A stretch of DNA of 64,000 nucleotides from a virus. The DNA is taken from the UHGV virus genome UHGV-0305822. One strand, written 5' to 3'. The position numbers and the translations under genes were made by a program. Each line of letters opens with the position of its first letter. The first letter of the stretch is position 1. Shown here one piece after another: positions 28,624 through 56,702 of this stretch. Below the pieces are notes generated by a model. That model searched no databases, was not told the DNA's origin, and saw only the letters and a program-made list of their open reading frames with translations.

Positions 28624-28830
28624 TTAGTCTTTTTTGTAGACAATTGCGTTACCGTGCAGTTTGTTGTTGCCGGAAATACCGATAACTTTGAATGCGTCGC
28701 CGCCAATTTTTTCAGCTTCAGCAGCCAGCTTACCCGTTACATGATCAACGGTGTCGCCGAAAGCGCTAACGTTACCGATTTTCTTAAACTCTTCTGGAAT
28801 ATGCTCAGCAGAAGAGAACTCTTTAATAGA
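28624..28830 (-). CDS. DUF1471 (BhsA/YdgH/McbA-like) domain protein without signal peptide
   Basis: C-terminal GGDAFKVIGISGNNKLHGNAIVYKK resembles the DUF1471 consensus (GA..Y.I.S.SG.N...GTA..YK); ATG at 28830 after GGAGAG RBS (ORF track start 28851). Confidence 0.45.
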   Translation of the reverse strand, partial: SIKEFSSAEHIPEEFKKIGNVSAFGDTVDHVTGKLAAEAEKIGGDAFKVIGISGNNKLHGNAIVYKKD

Positions 28831-29039
28831 CATAACAGCTCTCCATTTCAAAAGGAAGGTGGTCTAAGACCGACGTGTGTTACAACCGAAGCATAAGATA
28901 GCTCCTCCCCGTAGGGAGGAGTAGAGTGCGCGAAAAAAGTGGCCTGCTTAACTAAACGATGGGTTTAAGAAAAGTGTTGATAAAAAGCTTTACCAACGTC
29001 AGGTCACAATATATAAACACAACGTAAGAAAAAGGGGAA

Positions 29040-30005
29040 TTATTGCGGAGGTGATGTCGGACCATGTTTACCTTGGTGAATGTGAACGCTAAAGGTAATA
29101 CCGGAAATAATGGCATCTTTAACCGTAAAGACACCCACGCCTTCACCCGTACCACCGTATTTGAAGTTCTTAGCGACTTCCAAATTACCGGTGAACATCG
29201 CTTCATTCCCTTCCTGTTTAAAGTTCGGCGTTTTGAACGTTGTCGAACTGCCCGCTTCTGTTAACCAGGTTTGTGTTTTAAACGTAACGGAATTCGCTGC
29301 TTCCGTATTGCGGACTTCGCATTTTTCATTAATCGTTTTCGTTTCCAGGTTAATAGAGCGCTTTGAATAAATGAACGCATCTTCTTTGTTGATGTTCACT
29401 TTTGAAAGCATCGCATTCTCAAACCCGAGATCATCTTCAACCGAGTTAATGTAATACTTGTTTCCTTTATGGTCAACGCACTGCCACGTACCGTTTGCAT
29501 TATCAAACTGAAACAACCACGCCGCTTTCTCGCCATTCACCATACTTGTTCTTAGCGTGATATGTTTGTCAATCGTCGAAACGTTCAACACATACGCATT
29601 GGACAAGTCATCCGCCATTTGGTTTTCGGGGTCAGCCGACCACGCATAAACCGCATCTTCTAATCGCTTAACGTTAGCGAAGTTCAGATCAATCCAAAAA
29701 TAAATATCGGTTTTCCCCAAACGTAACAAGATAACGTAGTCTTCTCGTTTAACGTCAGGGGAATTAATTCGGTTGGAGTTAAACTTCCACCACTTTGCTG
29801 TTATCGTGTTACCCGTCTTAATGGTTAGGTTATCTGTTGCACCAGATGTTTCATGCGTCTTTTCAGTTGCTGAAGAAACAGATTGCACCACGGTAGGGTT
29901 AGCAAAGTTGGTTTCAATTGGTATCACTTTTACCCGATCTGTACCACGGGGTTTGTCTTCCGCGACGATACCAATTGAGAAAAAATCAACACTGGATTTC
30001 TCCAT
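29040..30005 (-). CDS. putative virion (tail/baseplate-associated) protein (321 aa)
   Basis: First gene of minus-strand structural block; beta-rich composition; placement only, no motif match. Confidence 0.4.
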   Translation of the reverse strand: MEKSSVDFFSIGIVAEDKPRGTDRVKVIPIETNFANPTVVQSVSSATEKTHETSGATDNLTIKTGNTITAKWWKFNSNRINSPDVKREDYVILLRLGKTDIYFWIDLNFANVKRLEDAVYAWSADPENQMADDLSNAYVLNVSTIDKHITLRTSMVNGEKAAWLFQFDNANGTWQCVDHKGNKYYINSVEDDLGFENAMLSKVNINKEDAFIYSKRSINLETKTINEKCEVRNTEAANSVTFKTQTWLTEAGSSTTFKTPNFKQEGNEAMFTGNLEVAKNFKYGGTGEGVGVFTVKDAIISGITFSVHIHQGKHGPTSPPQ

Positions 30006-30325
30006 CGGGACGTTCCTTAGATCGGAATTGATTTCAGATATATTTTACTTAAGTGAATAGGGACTGAACTGGTACTTCAGTCCCTACGGACACGTTACCC
30101 TTTTAGTACCTTTCGTTAAAGGTTACTAAAAATTACATTATGTCCCTTTATTCTGCTACTCGGGATACCGGTAGGGGGTAGGGGGCATTATGTATACGGA
30201 TATAAATAGCGGAGGTATACGGAGTATACCGACATACTCTTCCCAGAGGAACGTAGTGACTTCCTTATACCTCTTTTACAATCCATAATAATAGCCTTCC
30301 CTTCATTGGGATTAGCGAGTAAATC

Positions 30326-31063
30326 ATGAGAGAATTATTAGACGATATCTTTACCAACACCAGTTTAGAACTTTCTTCTACGGTGGTTAACGAACTAATA
30401 AAACAATCGCAACCTGCCAAGTTAATCGATGCTGGAACAATTAAACCTGAAGATTATCCAGACAGTGACGTTATCGACTGCTTGATTGACGAATACGTGA
30501 TAGGTAGTTACGCCAACCGCGTCTTCTTTGTTTTTAATACCGAAACCAGTGTCATGTTAATCTATAAGTTGATCAGTGGTGCCGAACTTGAAGTAATGGC
30601 TGACCACATTCGTCTCCTTGCGAACACGCCTACTAGTATCGCTGATGTGCTTATTGGGAACGGTTGGCCTTTACCACCACTATTCTCTTACTTCCCTCTG
30701 TTTAGAAATGGGATAGGGTTACTCCGAAATGCGGAAAACCTTCCCGATAACGTCGAGTTATCACTGCTTGGGCCCGGCATCGATCTTTGTCCATTAGAAG
30801 ACGAGGGCACGCTGTATGGTTTACGCATTTATGTTTCTGTGTTAGAGGGATACCGTATCATCGAGTTAATTGCATCAGACTTAGCAAAACAGATCCCTGA
30901 TGTAGAAACGATTTCTAAAGCTACCCACCTGGTTGAGATTAACCCGGACGATCCCTTATTGAAATATCACGAGAAAATTGATCTTCGTAAAATCGCCACG
31001 ATGAGAGGGTGGGGTTGTGCTGAGATTACGAAGGACTATCTGCTGTTAATTAAAACCGCGTAA
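30326..31063 (+). CDS. hypothetical protein, family with conserved C-terminal GW...LL module (member 1)
   Basis: N-terminus MRELLDDIFT similar to 32897 product (MKVHLDDIFKT); C-terminal MRGWGCAEITKDYLLLIKTA. Confidence 0.55.
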   Translation: MRELLDDIFTNTSLELSSTVVNELIKQSQPAKLIDAGTIKPEDYPDSDVIDCLIDEYVIGSYANRVFFVFNTETSVMLIYKLISGAELEVMADHIRLLANTPTSIADVLIGNGWPLPPLFSYFPLFRNGIGLLRNAENLPDNVELSLLGPGIDLCPLEDEGTLYGLRIYVSVLEGYRIIELIASDLAKQIPDVETISKATHLVEINPDDPLLKYHEKIDLRKIATMRGWGCAEITKDYLLLIKTA

Positions 31064-31093
31064 TTAAGAAAACCGAAAAAAGGAGAATATACC

Positions 31094-31648
31094 ATGTTTC
31101 AAACTGAACTGAAAAATGAAATTATCCAAACCCTTGAAAAAGGCGTAGGCGAACATTTCTTTGTCCGTCCTTATACCGTACTGACCAATACCATTATTCA
31201 GCCAGGTGCGATGATAGTAGGGGTAAGTGTACAAGCTGTAGAGGAAACCCCACTGCGTCGCAACATCACACGTAAAACCCATATCCCGTTTAGAACAGGT
31301 TTTACAGATTACTTTCAGAGCTTACTGAAAGATAGCGGTTGGAAAACAGGCAGCTTCTTCCACGAAGGGAAGACTTCCACGCTCGTTTATAAAGAGAACA
31401 CCAAGTATCTGGTCGATTTTCTCTTAGCGCGTCAGTATACTTTCTTTCCAACCCCTACTGACTGCACCCCAGACAACCCAGGTAAGTTATTAAACCAAAG
31501 CGAAGCCGAAGCACTCTTTACAAGACTTCGGAATGAGCAGTGCGATGTTGACGACTGGGAAACGTTGATCGCGGTCGCTAAAGCCCACGGTTGGTATACC
31601 GTACGTAAACTCGGCCAGCAGTTGTTGTTCTTAGCTTACCCTGCTTAA
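31094..31648 (+). CDS. hypothetical protein, GW...QLLF family (member 2)
   Basis: C-terminus AHGWYTVRKLGQQLLFLAYPA. Confidence 0.55.
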   Translation: MFQTELKNEIIQTLEKGVGEHFFVRPYTVLTNTIIQPGAMIVGVSVQAVEETPLRRNITRKTHIPFRTGFTDYFQSLLKDSGWKTGSFFHEGKTSTLVYKENTKYLVDFLLARQYTFFPTPTDCTPDNPGKLLNQSEAEALFTRLRNEQCDVDDWETLIAVAKAHGWYTVRKLGQQLLFLAYPA

Positions 31649-31677
31649 GTAACGAAAAAACCTAAAGGAGAGTAAAA

Positions 31678-32829
31678 ATGCGAAATATTATTTCTAAACC
31701 AGGTCATGCCAAAATCCTAAAAGAACTGATGGACAGATGCTATAATCGGACTTGGTCGCTACCAAGCTTAACCATCGAATCTTCATTACAACGTGAGTTG
31801 TTTGGTTATGTCATGGGCTGCTGTGTACTTACTGAATACAATGAGATTATCGCGCCTGTCGATGTCTGTACTTCCGATGAAGAAATTGAAGGTTACCAGT
31901 TCACAGCTTACACAAATTGTGGACTAAATTACCGTAAACTCGTTGTTAGGGAAATGAGTAGCAACCGGAAGATTATGTTTAAGGTATTCCCAAGTGGTAA
32001 AGTCAGTAATTTATGTCTTCAGCTTGAGAAAGTGCCCTTTCACGGTGCGGACATTTTAACTAAACCGGAGCTCGCGTTATTAAGCGGGTTAATTGGTTTT
32101 GAAGCAAAAACCATCAAAGTTGAGCAGGAACTTACACGAAACGATTTCGGCTCAACTTGGTACGAAAGTTTCTTCCGCTACGAAATGTTAAGTGATAAAG
32201 CTATCAAACTCACTTACCGTTCTACCGACGACATCGTTTACCACATTTTAATTAGCGGCGAACCCCACCAGATTATTGAAGTCGAAGGAGAAAAATCCGT
32301 GCGTACCTTAAAAGATGAATTAACTGATTTTGTTAACAAAATTGATAGCGTGGGTATCAGTGAATTATTATTCCCGATTCAACATCCAGAGTTGCTTGAC
32401 GAGAAATGTGAAAACATGGTTATGGCGGTGCATTTACTTCCTGACCATCTTGCTATCTACCGTACACTTTCTAAGAACCAACTTAAAGTGTGGTGTCTGT
32501 TAAAAGACCTTTTAACAGAGGCGGGGTGGTCGTGTAGTGTAGATGTTAACTGTGAAGGAGTTGCGTTCTTCATCACAATAGGCAATCGTAGTTTTTCTGT
32601 CGATTTACCTACTCGCAGCTATTACGATTTCTTCCCGACCGCAGAAGGACGTACTGAAAAAGAACCCGCATTACTGCTCAGTGCTAAGTCGTCCAATGCG
32701 CTAATGGCGCAACTAAAGGCAAAAGACGAGAAACTGGATGCTTTACATCTACCTATAATCGGAAAAGATTACGGTTGGGCTGACGTGCAAAAATACGGCA
32801 GCCAACTGTTGTTTGTTGCTGACCTTTAA
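31678..32829 (+). CDS. hypothetical protein, GW...QLLF family (member 3)
   Basis: C-terminus DYGWADVQKYGSQLLFVADL. Confidence 0.55.
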   Translation: MRNIISKPGHAKILKELMDRCYNRTWSLPSLTIESSLQRELFGYVMGCCVLTEYNEIIAPVDVCTSDEEIEGYQFTAYTNCGLNYRKLVVREMSSNRKIMFKVFPSGKVSNLCLQLEKVPFHGADILTKPELALLSGLIGFEAKTIKVEQELTRNDFGSTWYESFFRYEMLSDKAIKLTYRSTDDIVYHILISGEPHQIIEVEGEKSVRTLKDELTDFVNKIDSVGISELLFPIQHPELLDEKCENMVMAVHLLPDHLAIYRTLSKNQLKVWCLLKDLLTEAGWSCSVDVNCEGVAFFITIGNRSFSVDLPTRSYYDFFPTAEGRTEKEPALLLSAKSSNALMAQLKAKDEKLDALHLPIIGKDYGWADVQKYGSQLLFVADL

Positions 32830-32896
32830 TAAGTGAAAATACACTTTCTCTAACTGCCGCGCTTTAGTCGCGGCTTTTGTTAAGAAGGAAATAGAA

Positions 32897-33670
32897 ATGA
32901 AAGTCCATTTAGACGATATCTTTAAAACCGAACCGTATATGATCGAAGGTCCGCTAACATCACTACTACTCGCCGATAGATTAGATCGTACGCTGCAATT
33001 ACAATCGATCGAATCTGCACCCGTTGACGATGTAGAGCGTTACGAGCGCATCAACTATACGCGTGGTGAGTATCGTCGCTATAAGCCAAATTCACTAAGC
33101 GTTAAACTTTGGAAAGTAAGCACAGGTAAGGTATTAACTTATCGCACTGTCGGTAGTTATTACATTCAACAAGCCAAAGAATGGCTAGAGAAAGTTAAAG
33201 AACTGAACTTCGATCTACTGAGCAAAAAACTGCGCGATCATAACGCTAGTTTGCCGATACGTAATTATTTCTCCACGATTGAAAATAGCCGTTGTTTCGT
33301 TTCTCGCGAATCCATGATATTACCTGGGGATGATGTTCAGACAACACTAAAAGATGTGGTTGTGAAGAAAATCTTTCATGAATCTGAACACGTTGGGTTT
33401 CGTATCTATCTGACGCACAAGAGACCATTTACCGTGATTCACGTTGTTACCGCACCCGAAGGCTCAGCGGTTATTCGAGAACTTCCTGATGCTCGAGACC
33501 GTTGCCCTAATGAGCCGCTTTATTTAATGTCAGGAACAAAATCAACCGCGTTGATGTCCCGTTACAGCATGTTAGATGTTGTTGACGCTGCTATGAAACT
33601 AGGTTGGAAAGAAGTGCAGCAACATGGTAAACAATTGCTGTTTATTGCCGATGTAAAACTTAATCAATAG
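32897..33670 (+). CDS. hypothetical protein, GW...QLLF family (member 4)
   Basis: C-terminus KLGWKEVQQHGKQLLFIADVKLNQ. Confidence 0.55.
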   Translation: MKVHLDDIFKTEPYMIEGPLTSLLLADRLDRTLQLQSIESAPVDDVERYERINYTRGEYRRYKPNSLSVKLWKVSTGKVLTYRTVGSYYIQQAKEWLEKVKELNFDLLSKKLRDHNASLPIRNYFSTIENSRCFVSRESMILPGDDVQTTLKDVVVKKIFHESEHVGFRIYLTHKRPFTVIHVVTAPEGSAVIRELPDARDRCPNEPLYLMSGTKSTALMSRYSMLDVVDAAMKLGWKEVQQHGKQLLFIADVKLNQ

Positions 33671-33682
33671 TGAGGTGGTACC

Positions 33683-34261
33683 GTGTACCGATTAATAGAA
33701 ATGCGAAAAGACGTTTGGTTGGAAAACCTCGTCGATGGGGAGCTTGAGGGAATAGAGCTTTCCTTACCAGAAAGAGCGGACACGGTATTGGTCTTTCTGA
33801 TAAAACAGGCAGCGAAGGAACCGGTAGGAATCTTCAGCGTGGACTATAAAGACCCACGAGGGATTCATTTACGGAACATTTGCAGTGGTTTAGAAAGCTT
33901 ACCGGCTAATCCGTTCTTAAACTACGCAAAACGTAAACTCCAGCCAGGGCAACATCTCTGGGTAGTTCTAGCGCCTGATACACGCATTATACGTGACGAC
34001 CTGACTGCGTTTGTCCAAGCAACGAAAGTCAGTTTGTACAATCCTAATGCGGATCGTACCGATATGCCGTTTACAATCACCTTAGAAGACGATGGAACGC
34101 AAGAGGGTATTGAGGCAATTACGGAATTAGTAAACTCTTATCCGGTAGCGTCTATTGAGTTAGAAAACCCAAACCGATTACCGTTGGGTGATTTACTCGA
34201 ATGGATTGAGCTGAATACCGAGTTCCTCATTAACTCCCGGCAGTACCGGTTCGATGTATAA
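33683..34261 (+). CDS. hypothetical protein (192 aa)
   Basis: GTG start after GAGGTGG; followed by strong terminator. Confidence 0.5.
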   Translation: MYRLIEMRKDVWLENLVDGELEGIELSLPERADTVLVFLIKQAAKEPVGIFSVDYKDPRGIHLRNICSGLESLPANPFLNYAKRKLQPGQHLWVVLAPDTRIIRDDLTAFVQATKVSLYNPNADRTDMPFTITLEDDGTQEGIEAITELVNSYPVASIELENPNRLPLGDLLEWIELNTEFLINSRQYRFDV

Positions 34262-34265
34262 CATC

Positions 34266-34298
34266 GGTGGGGGTAAACCCCCCACCTTTTATTTTTTT
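34266..34298 (+). terminator. rho-independent terminator
   Basis: Stem GGTGGGGG / CCCCCACC, loop TAAA, then TTTTATTTTTTTG. Confidence 0.65.
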
Positions 34299-34391
34299 GT
34301 TCGTTAATATTAAAAATAATTTCAGATATATATTACCTAGGTGAGAGTACAAAAGCTCTCACTTAATAAAACCATTTTAGGAGTATTAAAG

Positions 34392-34763
34392 ATGAAAAAC
34401 GAATTATTTAAAGACCCGTTTGTTGTATTAATGATCGTTACTCGCGCTGCCACTAACCCAGAAAACCTGAAACGTTTACTTACTAACGAAGCATACCTTA
34501 TCGAACAGCGTGACGCGCAGTTAGCCAAACCGCACGCTGAAGGCCAGGCGAAAGACCTTATCTCTATTTTCCGTAACGAAGAATGGCGTAAAAACAACGA
34601 GCTGTCCGACAACTTGACGGTTGCAATTGCAAAACTCTTGACACTGTTCAATCTTGACAAAGACATTAACCAAAGCCTTTCTACAGAAGAGCGTCTGGAA
34701 ATGATAAGAGGTATCGGAGATAGTTATACACAGATTAAAGCATTACCCAACACAGTTATTTAA
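34392..34763 (+). CDS. hypothetical protein (123 aa)
   Basis: ATG at 34392 preceded by TTTTAGGAGTATTAAAG (ORF track start 34341 is upstream non-ATG). Confidence 0.5.
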   Translation: MKNELFKDPFVVLMIVTRAATNPENLKRLLTNEAYLIEQRDAQLAKPHAEGQAKDLISIFRNEEWRKNNELSDNLTVAIAKLLTLFNLDKDINQSLSTEERLEMIRGIGDSYTQIKALPNTVI

Positions 34764-34809
34764 TTTCATAATTTGTGGGAATTTCCCCATAACCCGAAGG
34801 AGCATTTCA

Positions 34810-35271
34810 ATGAAAACCTTTATCACATTCTTAATAACCATTTTAACTTTCGGCCTCAATAGCGCACACGCCGCTATCAACAGCTGGGAACAAATACAAA
34901 ACCCTGGCCAGGCAGTTTACGAAATTGAAGACACCGCCGGAAACGGACTGTCTATCAACTGTGACACAGAAACTGCGAATCGCAAATTTTACGGTCGCAT
35001 GGTTTGGTATTACGGTGAACCCGTAGGTGCAACTAACGCTGAAGATAACACGATGGATATTGTCGTAAACGGCAAAACCTATAACATCCCTACCGTGGAC
35101 GGTAGTGACAAAGCAGAACACGCTTGGGTTGCTTTCGTTAATGCTATCGGTAATGCCAAAACTTTCAGTGTGAGTATCAATGGTAACGATGCCGCTAACT
35201 TTACCGTAGAAGGCGAACGTCTGTCTGAAACTTTCTTCCAAAACTGTGGACACACCCGTCCTAACAAATAA
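34810..35271 (+). CDS. secreted protein (signal peptide), 153 aa
   Basis: N-terminal MKTFITFLITILTFGLNSAHA signal-like sequence; RBS GAAGGAG. Confidence 0.55.
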   Translation: MKTFITFLITILTFGLNSAHAAINSWEQIQNPGQAVYEIEDTAGNGLSINCDTETANRKFYGRMVWYYGEPVGATNAEDNTMDIVVNGKTYNIPTVDGSDKAEHAWVAFVNAIGNAKTFSVSINGNDAANFTVEGERLSETFFQNCGHTRPNK

Positions 35272-35293
35272 TTATTAGTCTTTTTTAGAGTGC

Positions 35294-35686
35294 GTGAAAA
35301 TGAATATCAGAACTATACTTTATACCATCATTATTTTCTGTGCGGTCGGAATTACTGGCACTTATGCTTTCGGTGATTCGGATGTCCGCTATTACGAACC
35401 GGCTCCTGACTCACCGATTATCAACCCGGATGAGACGCCTACGTTAATGCGCAGTTTCGGTAAACTACAAGTTTATCGTTTAGTGCGTGGTGAAACGTGT
35501 ACGGGATTACTCATTGCTGACACCCGTGCACAAGTCTACCAACGTCTGACGGATATCGCCTGCGAACAACCAAAGGTAATGTCGGTTAGCATCCATCCGC
35601 TATCAGTTGGTAACTATACCGCTGTGGACTTCTTTCACAACGCCGAATTAATCGGACGCGTTACCTTAAATCGTCCTGCCGAATAA
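35294..35686 (+). CDS. secreted/membrane-anchored protein, 130 aa
   Basis: Hydrophobic N-terminus ILYTIIIFCAVGITGTYA; start may be ATG at 35300. Confidence 0.5.
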   Translation: MKMNIRTILYTIIIFCAVGITGTYAFGDSDVRYYEPAPDSPIINPDETPTLMRSFGKLQVYRLVRGETCTGLLIADTRAQVYQRLTDIACEQPKVMSVSIHPLSVGNYTAVDFFHNAELIGRVTLNRPAE

Positions 35687-35704
35687 TCTAAAGGAGTAGT
35701 TACA

Positions 35705-36190
35705 ATGAAACGTTTACACACTCTGATGTTCTTTCTGGTTTTCTTGTTTATCGGTGTCACACCAAGTGTAGATGCGGCCTCCGTAGACGAATTGCTTACC
35801 TGTGATGGAAACGCTTGGGAAGGTCAGCCAAATGCGTGCCCAAACATCAACGACTTGTACGATACCGATAAGTCGTTTAAAGCCGTTGTTGATAAAACAT
35901 TAGACCCTGTGGGACTGGATGGTATGTTCGGCTCTAAAGGTTACATGGATGGCCCTGGCGGTAACATGTATCCGGTAAACATCAACAACAAAATCTGGAT
36001 TGAAAGTGGCGGTTGTAAAGCTAACGCTTGTGGTTGGGAATACATCGTAACGCTATACAACCCACACACCAAGAAACTCGTCGGTTATTACTACAACATC
36101 GACCCCGGTTATCTGATCTGGTTCGGTGATATCGGTGTTGCCGAATTCGCTTACCTGGTTAAGAAATACGTAGAACAATCTAAATACTAA
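35705..36190 (+). CDS. secreted Ivy-like protein (inhibitor-of-vertebrate-lysozyme fold candidate)
   Basis: Signal peptide MKRLHTLMFFLVFLFIGVTPSVDA; segment ESGGCKANACGWEYIVTLY...YYNIDPG parallels the Ivy CKPHDC loop region (SACKPHDCGSQRIAVMW...FSTIDEK) recalled from E. coli Ivy, but with N in place of the key His. Confidence 0.4.
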   Translation: MKRLHTLMFFLVFLFIGVTPSVDAASVDELLTCDGNAWEGQPNACPNINDLYDTDKSFKAVVDKTLDPVGLDGMFGSKGYMDGPGGNMYPVNINNKIWIESGGCKANACGWEYIVTLYNPHTKKLVGYYYNIDPGYLIWFGDIGVAEFAYLVKKYVEQSKY

Positions 36191-54851: not shown

Positions 54852-55778
54852 ATGTATTTGTACAAAAGTAAAAAAGTAAAAGGTATTAAAGACTGCCTTA
54901 GACAAATGGGGTCTCAGCATCTTGAAAATGTCATGGAAGAAAACCGAATAAAGGAAAATCCTGTCTCGAAATGGATAAAAAAGAATCGTAACCATTTAAC
55001 CAATGCCTTTATACCTTACGACGCTGAGTTAGGTCTCAAAGATCCCCGTTCCCTTCACGCACAAACATTGGCAATTGGATGGCTATACGGTGGTGCTTCC
55101 TTAATATCCAACCAAGCACTTAGAGAACTTGTTTTCGAGACTGAGATGCCCAGTAAATTCCCTGAAGAATGGTTGGACTTTATACCTACTTGGACTGTGG
55201 CAATCGACGTAGGTAAAGAGGATGAGACTTTCTTTCTCGGCTATCGAAAAAACGGGAAGAGAAGGTTTATCATAATTGCCACAAATACTGATTACGGGTT
55301 AACAGAAGGCGTTACCACAATTGCCACTTGTTCGTTAGAGCTTCGTAGTGCAGGGAACGGGCTTGTGGAAATCGACTATGCCGACGGTGTGGAAAACGAA
55401 CAAGAAAAGATGTTGTGGTTATCTCTGGCCAAAGCCGCCACTTCGATGATATTTCTGTGCACGCTAATCCCGCCTAACTACAGGGAGACTTTTAATGATA
55501 TTAAGTTCAAGGAAATCAAAAAGAACGGTAGTATTAGTTACGACGTTAAACCTCGTGAACGCGATGTTAAGATAGATATCACGCCAGGACAAGTGAATTA
55601 TCTAAAAGGGTTTAACACTGACTTGAAAACCATGCAGGGTATCAAACATGCTAAGGCTGCCCACATCCGTCGCGCACACTGGCGCAGATATTGGGTCGGC
55701 CCTAGAAATGGTGAAAGAAAGAGAAAACTTTGTTGGATTCCACCTACCTTTGTCCGTGGCTACGTACCCCACAATTAA
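54852..55778 (+). CDS. hypothetical protein, HIRRAHW family member 1 (308 aa)
   Basis: C-terminus AAHIRRAHWRRYWVG...WIPPTFVRGY paralogous to next gene. Confidence 0.55.
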   Translation: MYLYKSKKVKGIKDCLRQMGSQHLENVMEENRIKENPVSKWIKKNRNHLTNAFIPYDAELGLKDPRSLHAQTLAIGWLYGGASLISNQALRELVFETEMPSKFPEEWLDFIPTWTVAIDVGKEDETFFLGYRKNGKRRFIIIATNTDYGLTEGVTTIATCSLELRSAGNGLVEIDYADGVENEQEKMLWLSLAKAATSMIFLCTLIPPNYRETFNDIKFKEIKKNGSISYDVKPRERDVKIDITPGQVNYLKGFNTDLKTMQGIKHAKAAHIRRAHWRRYWVGPRNGERKRKLCWIPPTFVRGYVPHN

Positions 55779-55802
55779 GCTAAAGTGTTTAGGAGTATTA
55801 AA

Positions 55803-56702
55803 ATGACAACGAATAATAGACTTTACGGGAAAGCGCTAAGACGCATGAGTGAACAAATAGAAAAGGCACACCAAACAATTCACGGATTAGATCAGTGTCG
55901 CTTTATTCGGTTCATTAACGAGCATAAACGTCAAATACCCGTAACGTTTATGCCAGTTAAAGATCCGACCTATCGTGAGTATGGCGTTACCGAACAGATT
56001 CCCAGACTGATTAAGCAGTCTCTGGGACTAGGATGGCAATACGCTGCTGTTGAAATCATCTCGGATGAAGAACTGATGGCGCTCTTAGCAAAAACTGAGA
56101 GACTAAAAAATATCCCGTACTTCTGGATAGAAACCATCCCTTCATTTACTTTCTCGGTTACTGTAAATCTCGACGAATGTCCAATCACGTTATTTATCGG
56201 AAGACGTCTTTACGAAGGTGAAGAAGTTCTCTTTGTGATGTCATGCGAAGAACATGACGAGTCGGTATACATGGAGTTTGAGATTTACACGATCGATAAA
56301 AGTAATGATGATTTCGTGGAGTTAAAGCCGCTCCTTACTTCGGTTAAGGAGAATCAACGACTACTCGACGCCGTCTATATCGGGCTATATCTTTCATCAC
56401 GAATTAAGCGAACCGAACGCGAGAAGAAAGAATTTCGCGGAAGGTCCATTCGTTATGTTCCTGATACAGAAATTCGCCCACGTAGTGAAGCAGTCGTTTT
56501 AGATGTAAGTCCGGTACAATGGGAAGATATAGAGCAGCAACGCAAGGAAGGACACGAGGTTTGTTTGGCGATTTATTGTGCCGCACATATCCGTCGTGCG
56601 CATTGGAAGCGTGTATGGTGTGGTAAAATGTCAGAAATGCGCTGGCGCGAATGGCGATGGATAGCGCCGAGTTACATTTCTGGATTTTATCGTGGGAAAT
56701 AA
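55803..56702 (+). CDS. hypothetical protein, HIRRAHW family member 2 (~300 aa)
   Basis: C-terminus AAHIRRAHWKRVWCG...WIAPSYISGF; ATG at 55803 after TTAGGAGTATTAAA. Confidence 0.55.
   Translation: MTTNNRLYGKALRRMSEQIEKAHQTIHGLDQCRFIRFINEHKRQIPVTFMPVKDPTYREYGVTEQIPRLIKQSLGLGWQYAAVEIISDEELMALLAKTERLKNIPYFWIETIPSFTFSVTVNLDECPITLFIGRRLYEGEEVLFVMSCEEHDESVYMEFEIYTIDKSNDDFVELKPLLTSVKENQRLLDAVYIGLYLSSRIKRTEREKKEFRGRSIRYVPDTEIRPRSEAVVLDVSPVQWEDIEQQRKEGHEVCLAIYCAAHIRRAHWKRVWCGKMSEMRWREWRWIAPSYISGFYRGK

Follow-up and report, generated by a model that had tools for sequence, protein, structure and literature searches.

The window analysed here, a 64,000-nucleotide stretch of the virus genome UHGV-0305822, contains an array of four consecutive plus-strand genes, designated o1 (30326-31063; 245 residues), o2 (31094-31648; 184 residues), o3 (31678-32829; 383 residues) and o4 (32897-33670; 257 residues). 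The original prediction, made from the letters of the DNA, had described these genes as paralogs with a common C-terminal end and variable N-terminal regions. All four open reading frames (ORFs) are present where it placed them; the four C-terminal strings that it quoted are not in gene order, and those opening with MRGW, AHGW, DYGW and KLGW belong to o1, o2, o3 and o4, respectively. The locus is a lineage-specific tandem expansion, to three or four copies, of an uncharacterised jumbo-phage protein family, the SPN3US gp175 family, and its members are real genes under purifying selection. The smallest, o2, represents the minimal full unit and is equivalent to the C-terminal half of o3, in which an N-terminal extension of approximately 200 residues precedes the o2-like unit. 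Of the four copies, the basic protein o4 (isoelectric point 9.0) most resembles the family consensus and SPN3US gp175, and it is under the strongest constraint. The acidic protein o1 (isoelectric point 4.5), which profile comparison identifies as a highly diverged full-length paralog of o4, is absent from some related genomes.

The C-terminal similarity is real in o2, o3 and o4. BLASTP aligns o2 with o3 at 51.6 bits (30% identity over 108 residues), o3 with o4 at 45.8 bits (38% identity over 65 residues), and o2 with o4 at 33.1 bits. These pairwise scores are clearly above chance; o1 scores just 23.5 bits against o4. Furthermore, a hidden Markov model (HMM) of the module, made from homologues in other phages only and containing no sequence from the window, was run on the window's complete set of 374 six-frame ORFs. 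It matched o4 (E = 2.1e-15; residues 196-257, positions 33482-33667, plus strand), o3 (E = 2.4e-14; residues 319-383, 32632-32826, plus strand) and o2 (E = 4.9e-8; residues 118-184, 31445-31645, plus strand) and no others, the next best ORF having an E value of 0.23. The module of o3 also matches PHROGs 26772, 33648 and 24489, and o4 has PHROG matches as well. The module spans approximately 62-67 residues, not the roughly 40 originally proposed, with a P-x9-P loop at its start and GWxxVxxxGxQLLF at its end. The family consensus reads [ILF]PDxxDR[ST]xN[DE]PxYLMS..V..L, followed by 7-50 variable residues and then A...GWxxVxxxGxQLLF. Within the window, the polar loop is intact in o4 alone, which keeps the canonical LPDxxDRxxNEPxYLMS; it is degenerate in o3 (FPTAEGRTEKEP) and o2 (FPTPTDCTPDNP), and most strongly so in o1 (IPDVETISKATH).

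The relationship of o1 to the remainder of the array is visible only by profile-profile comparison. Neither pairwise BLAST nor the module HMM picked it up, the latter returning E = 5, which is at the noise level. When the o1 family (83 sequences) was aligned with the o4 family (27 sequences) by hhalign, the two matched end to end over 230 columns with a score of 36.7 (E = 1e-4), as against 13.9 +/- 1.9 and a maximum of 18.8 in 40 column-shuffled controls. The N-terminal parts alone scored 24.2, against 14.1 +/- 2.4 for the shuffles. Alignment of the o1 family with the module alignment was likewise collinear (E = 1e-3, hhalign probability 20%), and would place a degenerate module at residues 189-245 of o1 (30890-31060, plus strand; IPDVETIS...RGWGCAEITKDYLLLIKTA). 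By these comparisons, o1 is a real, very diverged, full-length relative of o4. A corresponding hint from MAFFT that the N-terminal part of o3 is homologous to that of o4 found no support, as its hhalign score was 17.8 against shuffles of 13.3 +/- 3.0.

The LDDIF start reported as common to o1 and o4 is also genuine, and is encoded in both genes by an identical 16-nucleotide stretch (TTAGACGATATCTTTA; 30338-30353 and 32909-32924) at codons 5-9, in proteins that are only about 20% identical overall. Our estimate of the chance expectation for such a match is approximately 0.003 in 5 kb. The identity of the two strings may reflect micro gene conversion or a constraint at the nucleotide level.

Members of the SPN3US gp175 family occupy the same locus in other genera, immediately downstream of a divergently transcribed baseplate gene (phrog_3216); the window, where the plus-strand block begins beside that gene, has this order in common with SPN3US, SPAsTU, Asesino, Caitlin, ChrisDB, CR5 and Phobos. 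One member each is found in SPN3US (gp175, 412 residues), SPAsTU (MLDJOKPK_00266, 333 residues), Asesino (gp195, 223 residues), CR5 (gp165, 364 residues) and Phobos (gp176, 319 residues), and these proteins of differing lengths carry the same C-terminal module behind unrelated N-terminal parts. Machinavirus has two tandem members, gp184/gp185 in Caitlin and gp196/gp197 in ChrisDB, while in Klebsiella phage MJ359 a stand-alone module of 113 residues lies amid tRNA genes. SPN3US gp175 itself aligns with o4 at 52.8 bits by BLASTP. The SPN3US gp175, Asesino gp195 and phiEaH2 G173_gp097 proteins thus share with the array the C-terminal module (BLASTP 37-53 bits to o3 and o4; HMM E values down to 2e-15), the position after the baseplate gene and the layout of a variable N-terminus and constant C-terminus. 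They differ from it in copy number, with one gene (two in Machinavirus) where the window has three clear members and one very diverged, and their N-terminal parts are not alignable between genera. The location of the family in the genome is conserved in no fewer than six genera of enterobacterial jumbo phages, and the genetic model SPN3US is among the phages concerned. Nearby, the proteins Asesino gp196/gp199 and SPN3US gp176/gp179 (L001, L002) have superficially similar ends of the form helix-G[FY]-strand-strand (...EQHGYQQHRAVYIP, ...KKLGFKRTATAFVI); BLASTP revealed no link between these proteins and the family.

When 1.84 billion cluster representatives were searched exhaustively with a profile, just 65 matched at E <= 1e-3. 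In these proteins of 72-534 residues the module is nearly always C-terminal, so that the proposed combination of a conserved C-terminal module with variable N-terminal parts recurs across jumbo-phage genera. Many members consist of the module alone (72-130 residues), from which it follows that the module folds and acts on its own. A second, word-indexed homologue search with a broader alignment gave fewer and less diverse matches than the first and brought no gain. In the phage collection, megablast with the nucleotide sequence of the array gave zero matches, as did tblastn with o3, so that relatives there are reached only by protein- and profile-level searches. No conserved partner gene was found beside the stand-alone modules: the upstream genes of approximately 280 residues in two contigs proved to be unrelated, and one of them is a fragment of a DnaB-like helicase.

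Searches of phage and defence databases, proposed along with the original prediction, yielded matches in the former but none in the latter. The only database matches of the array proteins are to PHROGs, all of them labelled as of unknown function (family PHROGs 33648, 24489, 26772 and 18480). Against Pfam and NCBIfam, o1-o4 gave nothing above noise, and against PADLOC no hit at E <= 1. A Pfam scan of 58 of the 65 family representatives produced no convincing match, and a profile search of the PDB sequences with the family found nothing. A literature search likewise found nothing on SPN3US gp175, the mentions of 'gp175' referring instead to a phiKZ protease or to PhiPA3 RecA. The family is thus already catalogued as PHROGs, while its domain has no Pfam or NCBIfam model, no name, and no solved or significantly similar structure. 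Even should the function prove mundane, a new domain family and its boundaries have been cleanly defined.

In Erwinia phages Asesino and phiEaH2 and in Salmonella phage SPN3US, virion proteins share 76-81% identity with the protein of 420 residues that flanks the array, and the gene order around it matches that of the same three phages. Near-identical arrays are present on many contigs of approximately 225 kb, both from metagenomes and from assemblies of Salmonella, Shigella and E. coli isolates; the lineage bearing the array is common in clinical assemblies of these hosts. The proposed genus Bapsvirus has been described as comprising members of the Chimalliviridae of approximately 220-226 kb that are syntenic with Seoulvirus at low average nucleotide identity and that have been found in assemblies of Salmonella, E. 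coli and Shigella (PMC12768965). The phage of the window is a jumbo phage of the nucleus-forming type, a relative of Seoulvirus and Erskinevirus of approximately 225 kb that matches the description of Bapsvirus, the genus to which we infer that it belongs. The array was also found on two records filed as circular plasmids, one from E. coli (NZ_CP173450.1, 221,873 bp; L019) and one from Enterobacter ludwigii (NZ_CP134650.1, 222,441 bp; L020). Together with the contigs of approximately 225 kb in isolate assemblies, these records suggest a carrier-like state (PMC12768965).

Comparison within this lineage shows that the array evolves faster than its neighbours. Amino acid identity to the diverged relatives L010 and L012 is 69% for o1, 47-50% for o2, 71% for o3 and 80-93% for o4, as compared with 90-96% for the adjacent structural genes. 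The ratio of nonsynonymous to synonymous substitution rates (dN/dS) is 0.08-0.39 for o1-o4 and 0.02-0.06 for the adjacent structural genes; it is lowest in o4 (0.08-0.14), 0.12-0.27 in o1 and highest in o3 (0.31-0.39). The divergence is patchy. In a sliding nucleotide comparison, identity falls to approximately 50% at 31100-31500, which corresponds to the part of o2 upstream of the module (its N-terminal ~135 residues), and to 49-64% at 32300-32700, the homologous part of o3 (residues ~205-340), while the sequence between and after these mosaic patches is 79-95% identical. Identity among the alleles of o1 extends from 96% down to 47%, and L009-L011 and L020 lack this gene. Within the ortholog sets of o1, o2 and o4, conservation is stronger in the module than in the N-terminal part. 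The description of the array as a diversifying family therefore stands as regards its fast evolution, its mosaic patches and the presence or absence of o1, but does not extend to gene-wide positive selection, of which the dN/dS values give no sign. The picture of a constant module and a variable part holds between paralogs, between genera and within the population. Because a constant and a swapped part of the protein can be told apart among otherwise near-identical genomes, the array offers a target in the search for host-interaction or counter-defence functions in chimalliviruses.

The structure of o2, predicted by AlphaFold2 from the family alignment, is compact and confident, with a predicted local distance difference test score (pLDDT) of 82.6 and a predicted template modelling score (pTM) of 0.74. 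The modelled topology is alpha-beta-beta / alpha-beta-beta-beta / beta-alpha-alpha-beta-beta, and its last unit, at pLDDT 88-96, is the module. For o4 the prediction was confident in the module only (pLDDT 81-91) and poor elsewhere (pLDDT 53); a Foldseek search of this model against the PDB was meaningless, the top match being RnlA at E = 0.2. No transmembrane segments were found in o1-o4, which are soluble proteins.

Signals flanking the array bear on when it might be expressed. Between o1 and the divergent baseplate gene, at a distance of 270 nucleotides upstream of o1, lies a promoter-like motif (TTTCAGATATATTTTACTTAAGTGA; 30032-30056, plus strand), directly 3' of which a stem-loop can be read from the sequence (TAGGGACTGAA-CTGGTAC-TTCAGTCCCTA; 30058-30086, plus strand). 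The 25-nucleotide motif (TTTCAGATATATWTTACYTARGTGA) has exactly two copies in the window, both on the plus strand, against none expected by chance. The second (34320-34344) is followed by a stem-loop of its own and would head the next transcription unit. The 16-nucleotide core of the motif is conserved in six phage genera, where it precedes the family gene or genes next to it; carriers are Asesino, Caitlin, ChrisDB, CR5, Phobos and SPAsTU. Each copy in these relatives is followed by a stem-loop of differing sequence. At least four copies of the core are present both in phiEaH2 and in a 225-kb relative, and the form TTCAGATATATWTTAC(Y)TA(R)GTGA is further found at L001 15312, L013 3417, L014 2041, L015 2159, L017 3241 and L018 5772. 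The motif is strand-specific, and each jumbo-phage genome has several exact copies of it. Conserved AT-rich motifs are known upstream of the early operons of jumbo phages that encode RNA polymerases (reviewed in PMC7598289). By analogy with these, the motif is probably an early-promoter motif of the clade, and the array is probably transcribed early.

Two terminator-like elements were also noted. A GC hairpin followed by a T-run (32856-32874, plus strand), recovered by a consensus scan, lies between o3 and o4; across the region, terminator-like sites are no more numerous than expected from shuffling, and this hairpin is thus weak evidence. A second terminator-like hairpin of 8 bp, 7 of them GC, also with a T-run (34266-34286, plus strand), follows o5 (33683-34261, plus strand; 192 residues) and stands just before the second copy of the motif. 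The o5 gene adjoins the array and is not a member of the family; it is a homologue of SPN3US gp177 and Asesino gp197 (BLASTP 79-87 bits) and matches phrog_20879 at E = 3e-33. A scan for sigma-70-like promoters gave no excess over the shuffle expectation, and a search of Rfam over 29000-35500 found nothing credible.

Together, these observations raise the possibility that the module serves in protein-protein docking, with a partner conserved across the clade, and that the variable parts confer target specificity in host takeover or counter-defence. This reading is offered tentatively, with a chance that we place somewhat below even. The original prediction had proposed a common targeting or oligomerisation domain with variable effector parts, as in host-takeover or anti-defence arrays; of this, the architecture is supported, while the function is conjecture. 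The module would be an autonomous domain, its partner either a phage or a host protein, and the variable upstream part would set the cargo that is brought to the partner or the host target that is bound. By retaining the ancestral polar loop (DRxxNEP), o4 would probably also retain the ancestral role, and o1-o3, with their degenerate loops, would be sub- or neo-functionalised copies. The array would probably be transcribed early from the conserved AT-rich promoter-like motif, and its most likely role would be host takeover or counter-defence, not a part in the structure of the virion. A more specific form of this proposal, which we consider unlikely as it stands, is that the module is a new docking domain, specific to enterobacterial chimalliviruses, that tethers interchangeable N-terminal domains to a clade-conserved hub, for example a component of the nucleus shell, of import or of early infection, or a conserved host protein, and that mosaicism and copy number record an arms race with host defences. 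Should a docking domain subject to such an arms race be the correct reading, the family would constitute a new family of counter-defence or host-takeover adaptors.

Several points weigh against docking as the role of the module. No partner, localisation, expression timing or phenotype came to light for any family member, and o1-o4 match no defence or anti-defence model in PADLOC or Pfam. A Tad2-like gene in the vicinity of one metagenomic member is the sole anti-defence neighbour seen, gene-wide positive selection is absent from o1-o4, and early promotion is assigned to the motif only by analogy. Moreover, the o2 model packs the module and the upstream strands into one compact domain, and the module may therefore, if the model is correct, not be a separable adaptor in the longer members. 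Finally, ligand binding or catalysis could instead be the role of the strongly conserved polar loop PDxxDR[ST]xN[DE]P. The metagenomic member in question is the stand-alone module gene P0217 (L023), which lies approximately 800 nucleotides from the Tad2-like gene (PF11195, Thoeris anti-defence; L023 4801-5184 and 6001-6357).

A different possibility is that the module is a nucleic-acid binder of the winged-helix type, and that the proteins are regulators of phage transcription or replication with variable sensor or effector parts. Winged-helix domains, including those of RepE, Stn1 and Nse1 and the dimerisation domain of O-methyltransferases, are among the closest known systems, yet no significant structural or profile match links the module to winged-helix or helix-turn-helix families. 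The net charge of 24 modules averages -0.8 and ranges from -8.2 to +2.0, with those of the window between -3.2 and +0.8; the mean value fits protein binding better than nucleic-acid binding, and by the same charge data the modules lack the basic surface that, together with a recognition helix, is typical of nucleic-acid binders. Because the modules are neutral to acidic, contain an insert of variable length between their two helices and match no helix-turn-helix profile, a classical DNA-binding helix-turn-helix is disfavoured, and a regulatory role of this kind seems distinctly unlikely. An acetyltransferase of the GNAT type, to which the C-terminal 'G[WF]...' pattern had offered a lead, was also rejected, as neither a GNAT fold nor a match to Pfam Acetyltransf was found.

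The constant position of the family, always first or second next to the baseplate gene across genera, could alternatively indicate virion-associated or assembly factors of the adjacent baseplate and tail module, such as adaptors or chaperones of host-recognition proteins, whose variability would track host range; the variability, mosaicism and copy-number change indeed resemble those of host-range loci. However, the genes are divergent from the tail genes and lie within a block of small non-structural genes, and, as indirect evidence, the Erwinia phage records give the annotation of virion structural protein to the neighbours and not to members of the family. The stand-alone modules adjoin not tail genes but tRNA genes, an RNA ligase and a DnaB-like helicase. 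In addition, receptor-binding proteins usually show the reverse of a variable N-terminus and conserved C-terminus. A part in the virion or its assembly is consequently regarded as quite improbable.

The polar loop itself, [ILF]PDxxDR[ST]xN[DE]P, is the most conserved polar feature across the 65 family representatives, and its integrity in o4 and degeneracy in o1-o3 would be expected if it formed a ligand, metal or enzyme site of which only o4 had an active version, the other three being inactive regulatory copies. Yet a module of 65 residues is small for an enzyme, no likeness to catalytic families was found in Pfam, NCBIfam or the PDB, and conserved loops are just as typical of protein-protein interfaces, so that we judge this explanation highly improbable. 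That o1-o3 are merely decaying or functionless duplicates, with one copy alone of importance, is hardly credible: the polar motif is degenerate in all three, o1 is dispensable in some genomes and o3 has the highest dN/dS, but the four ORFs are intact and conserved in length across many genomes, with dN/dS values of 0.1-0.4, and the predicted fold of o2 is confident and compact.

The docking-unit reading may be set beside better-characterised systems. Polymorphic toxins, Rhs and contact-dependent inhibition (CDI) systems and variable anti-defence loci likewise combine a conserved module with variable parts, and show allele mosaicism and presence/absence polymorphism. The array differs from these in carrying its variable part at the N-terminus, in lacking any toxin, immunity or trafficking domain and any match in PADLOC or Pfam, and in having dN/dS values below 1. 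Tandem paralogy as such is common in giant phages. The paralogous head proteins of SPN3US (PMC5694885) are a comparable case of tandem or dispersed duplication of phage-specific genes in phiKZ-like or SPN3US-like genomes; they differ in being virion proteins, whereas the array family is not annotated as virion-associated and possesses a distinct, unnamed domain. The window itself contains a second tandem pair of paralogs (54852-55778 and 55785-56702, plus strand; 308 and 305 residues), both matching phrog_6160, which has no assigned function.

Other features were noted in the vicinity of the array. The o6 gene (34341-34763, plus strand; phrog_27024) varies by indels; close relatives have it called at 123 residues, and L009-L012, L019 and L020 lack it. 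Its listed GTG start overlaps the second copy of the promoter-like motif, and the true start is therefore probably the ATG near 34392. Farther downstream (34810-36190, plus strand) follows a run of small proteins with signal-peptide-like N-termini, one of which matches Pfam YfjT in relatives. On the other side of the array, a minus-strand gene of 69 residues (approximately 28624-28851) matches YdgH/BhsA (DUF1471), a host-like stress protein family.

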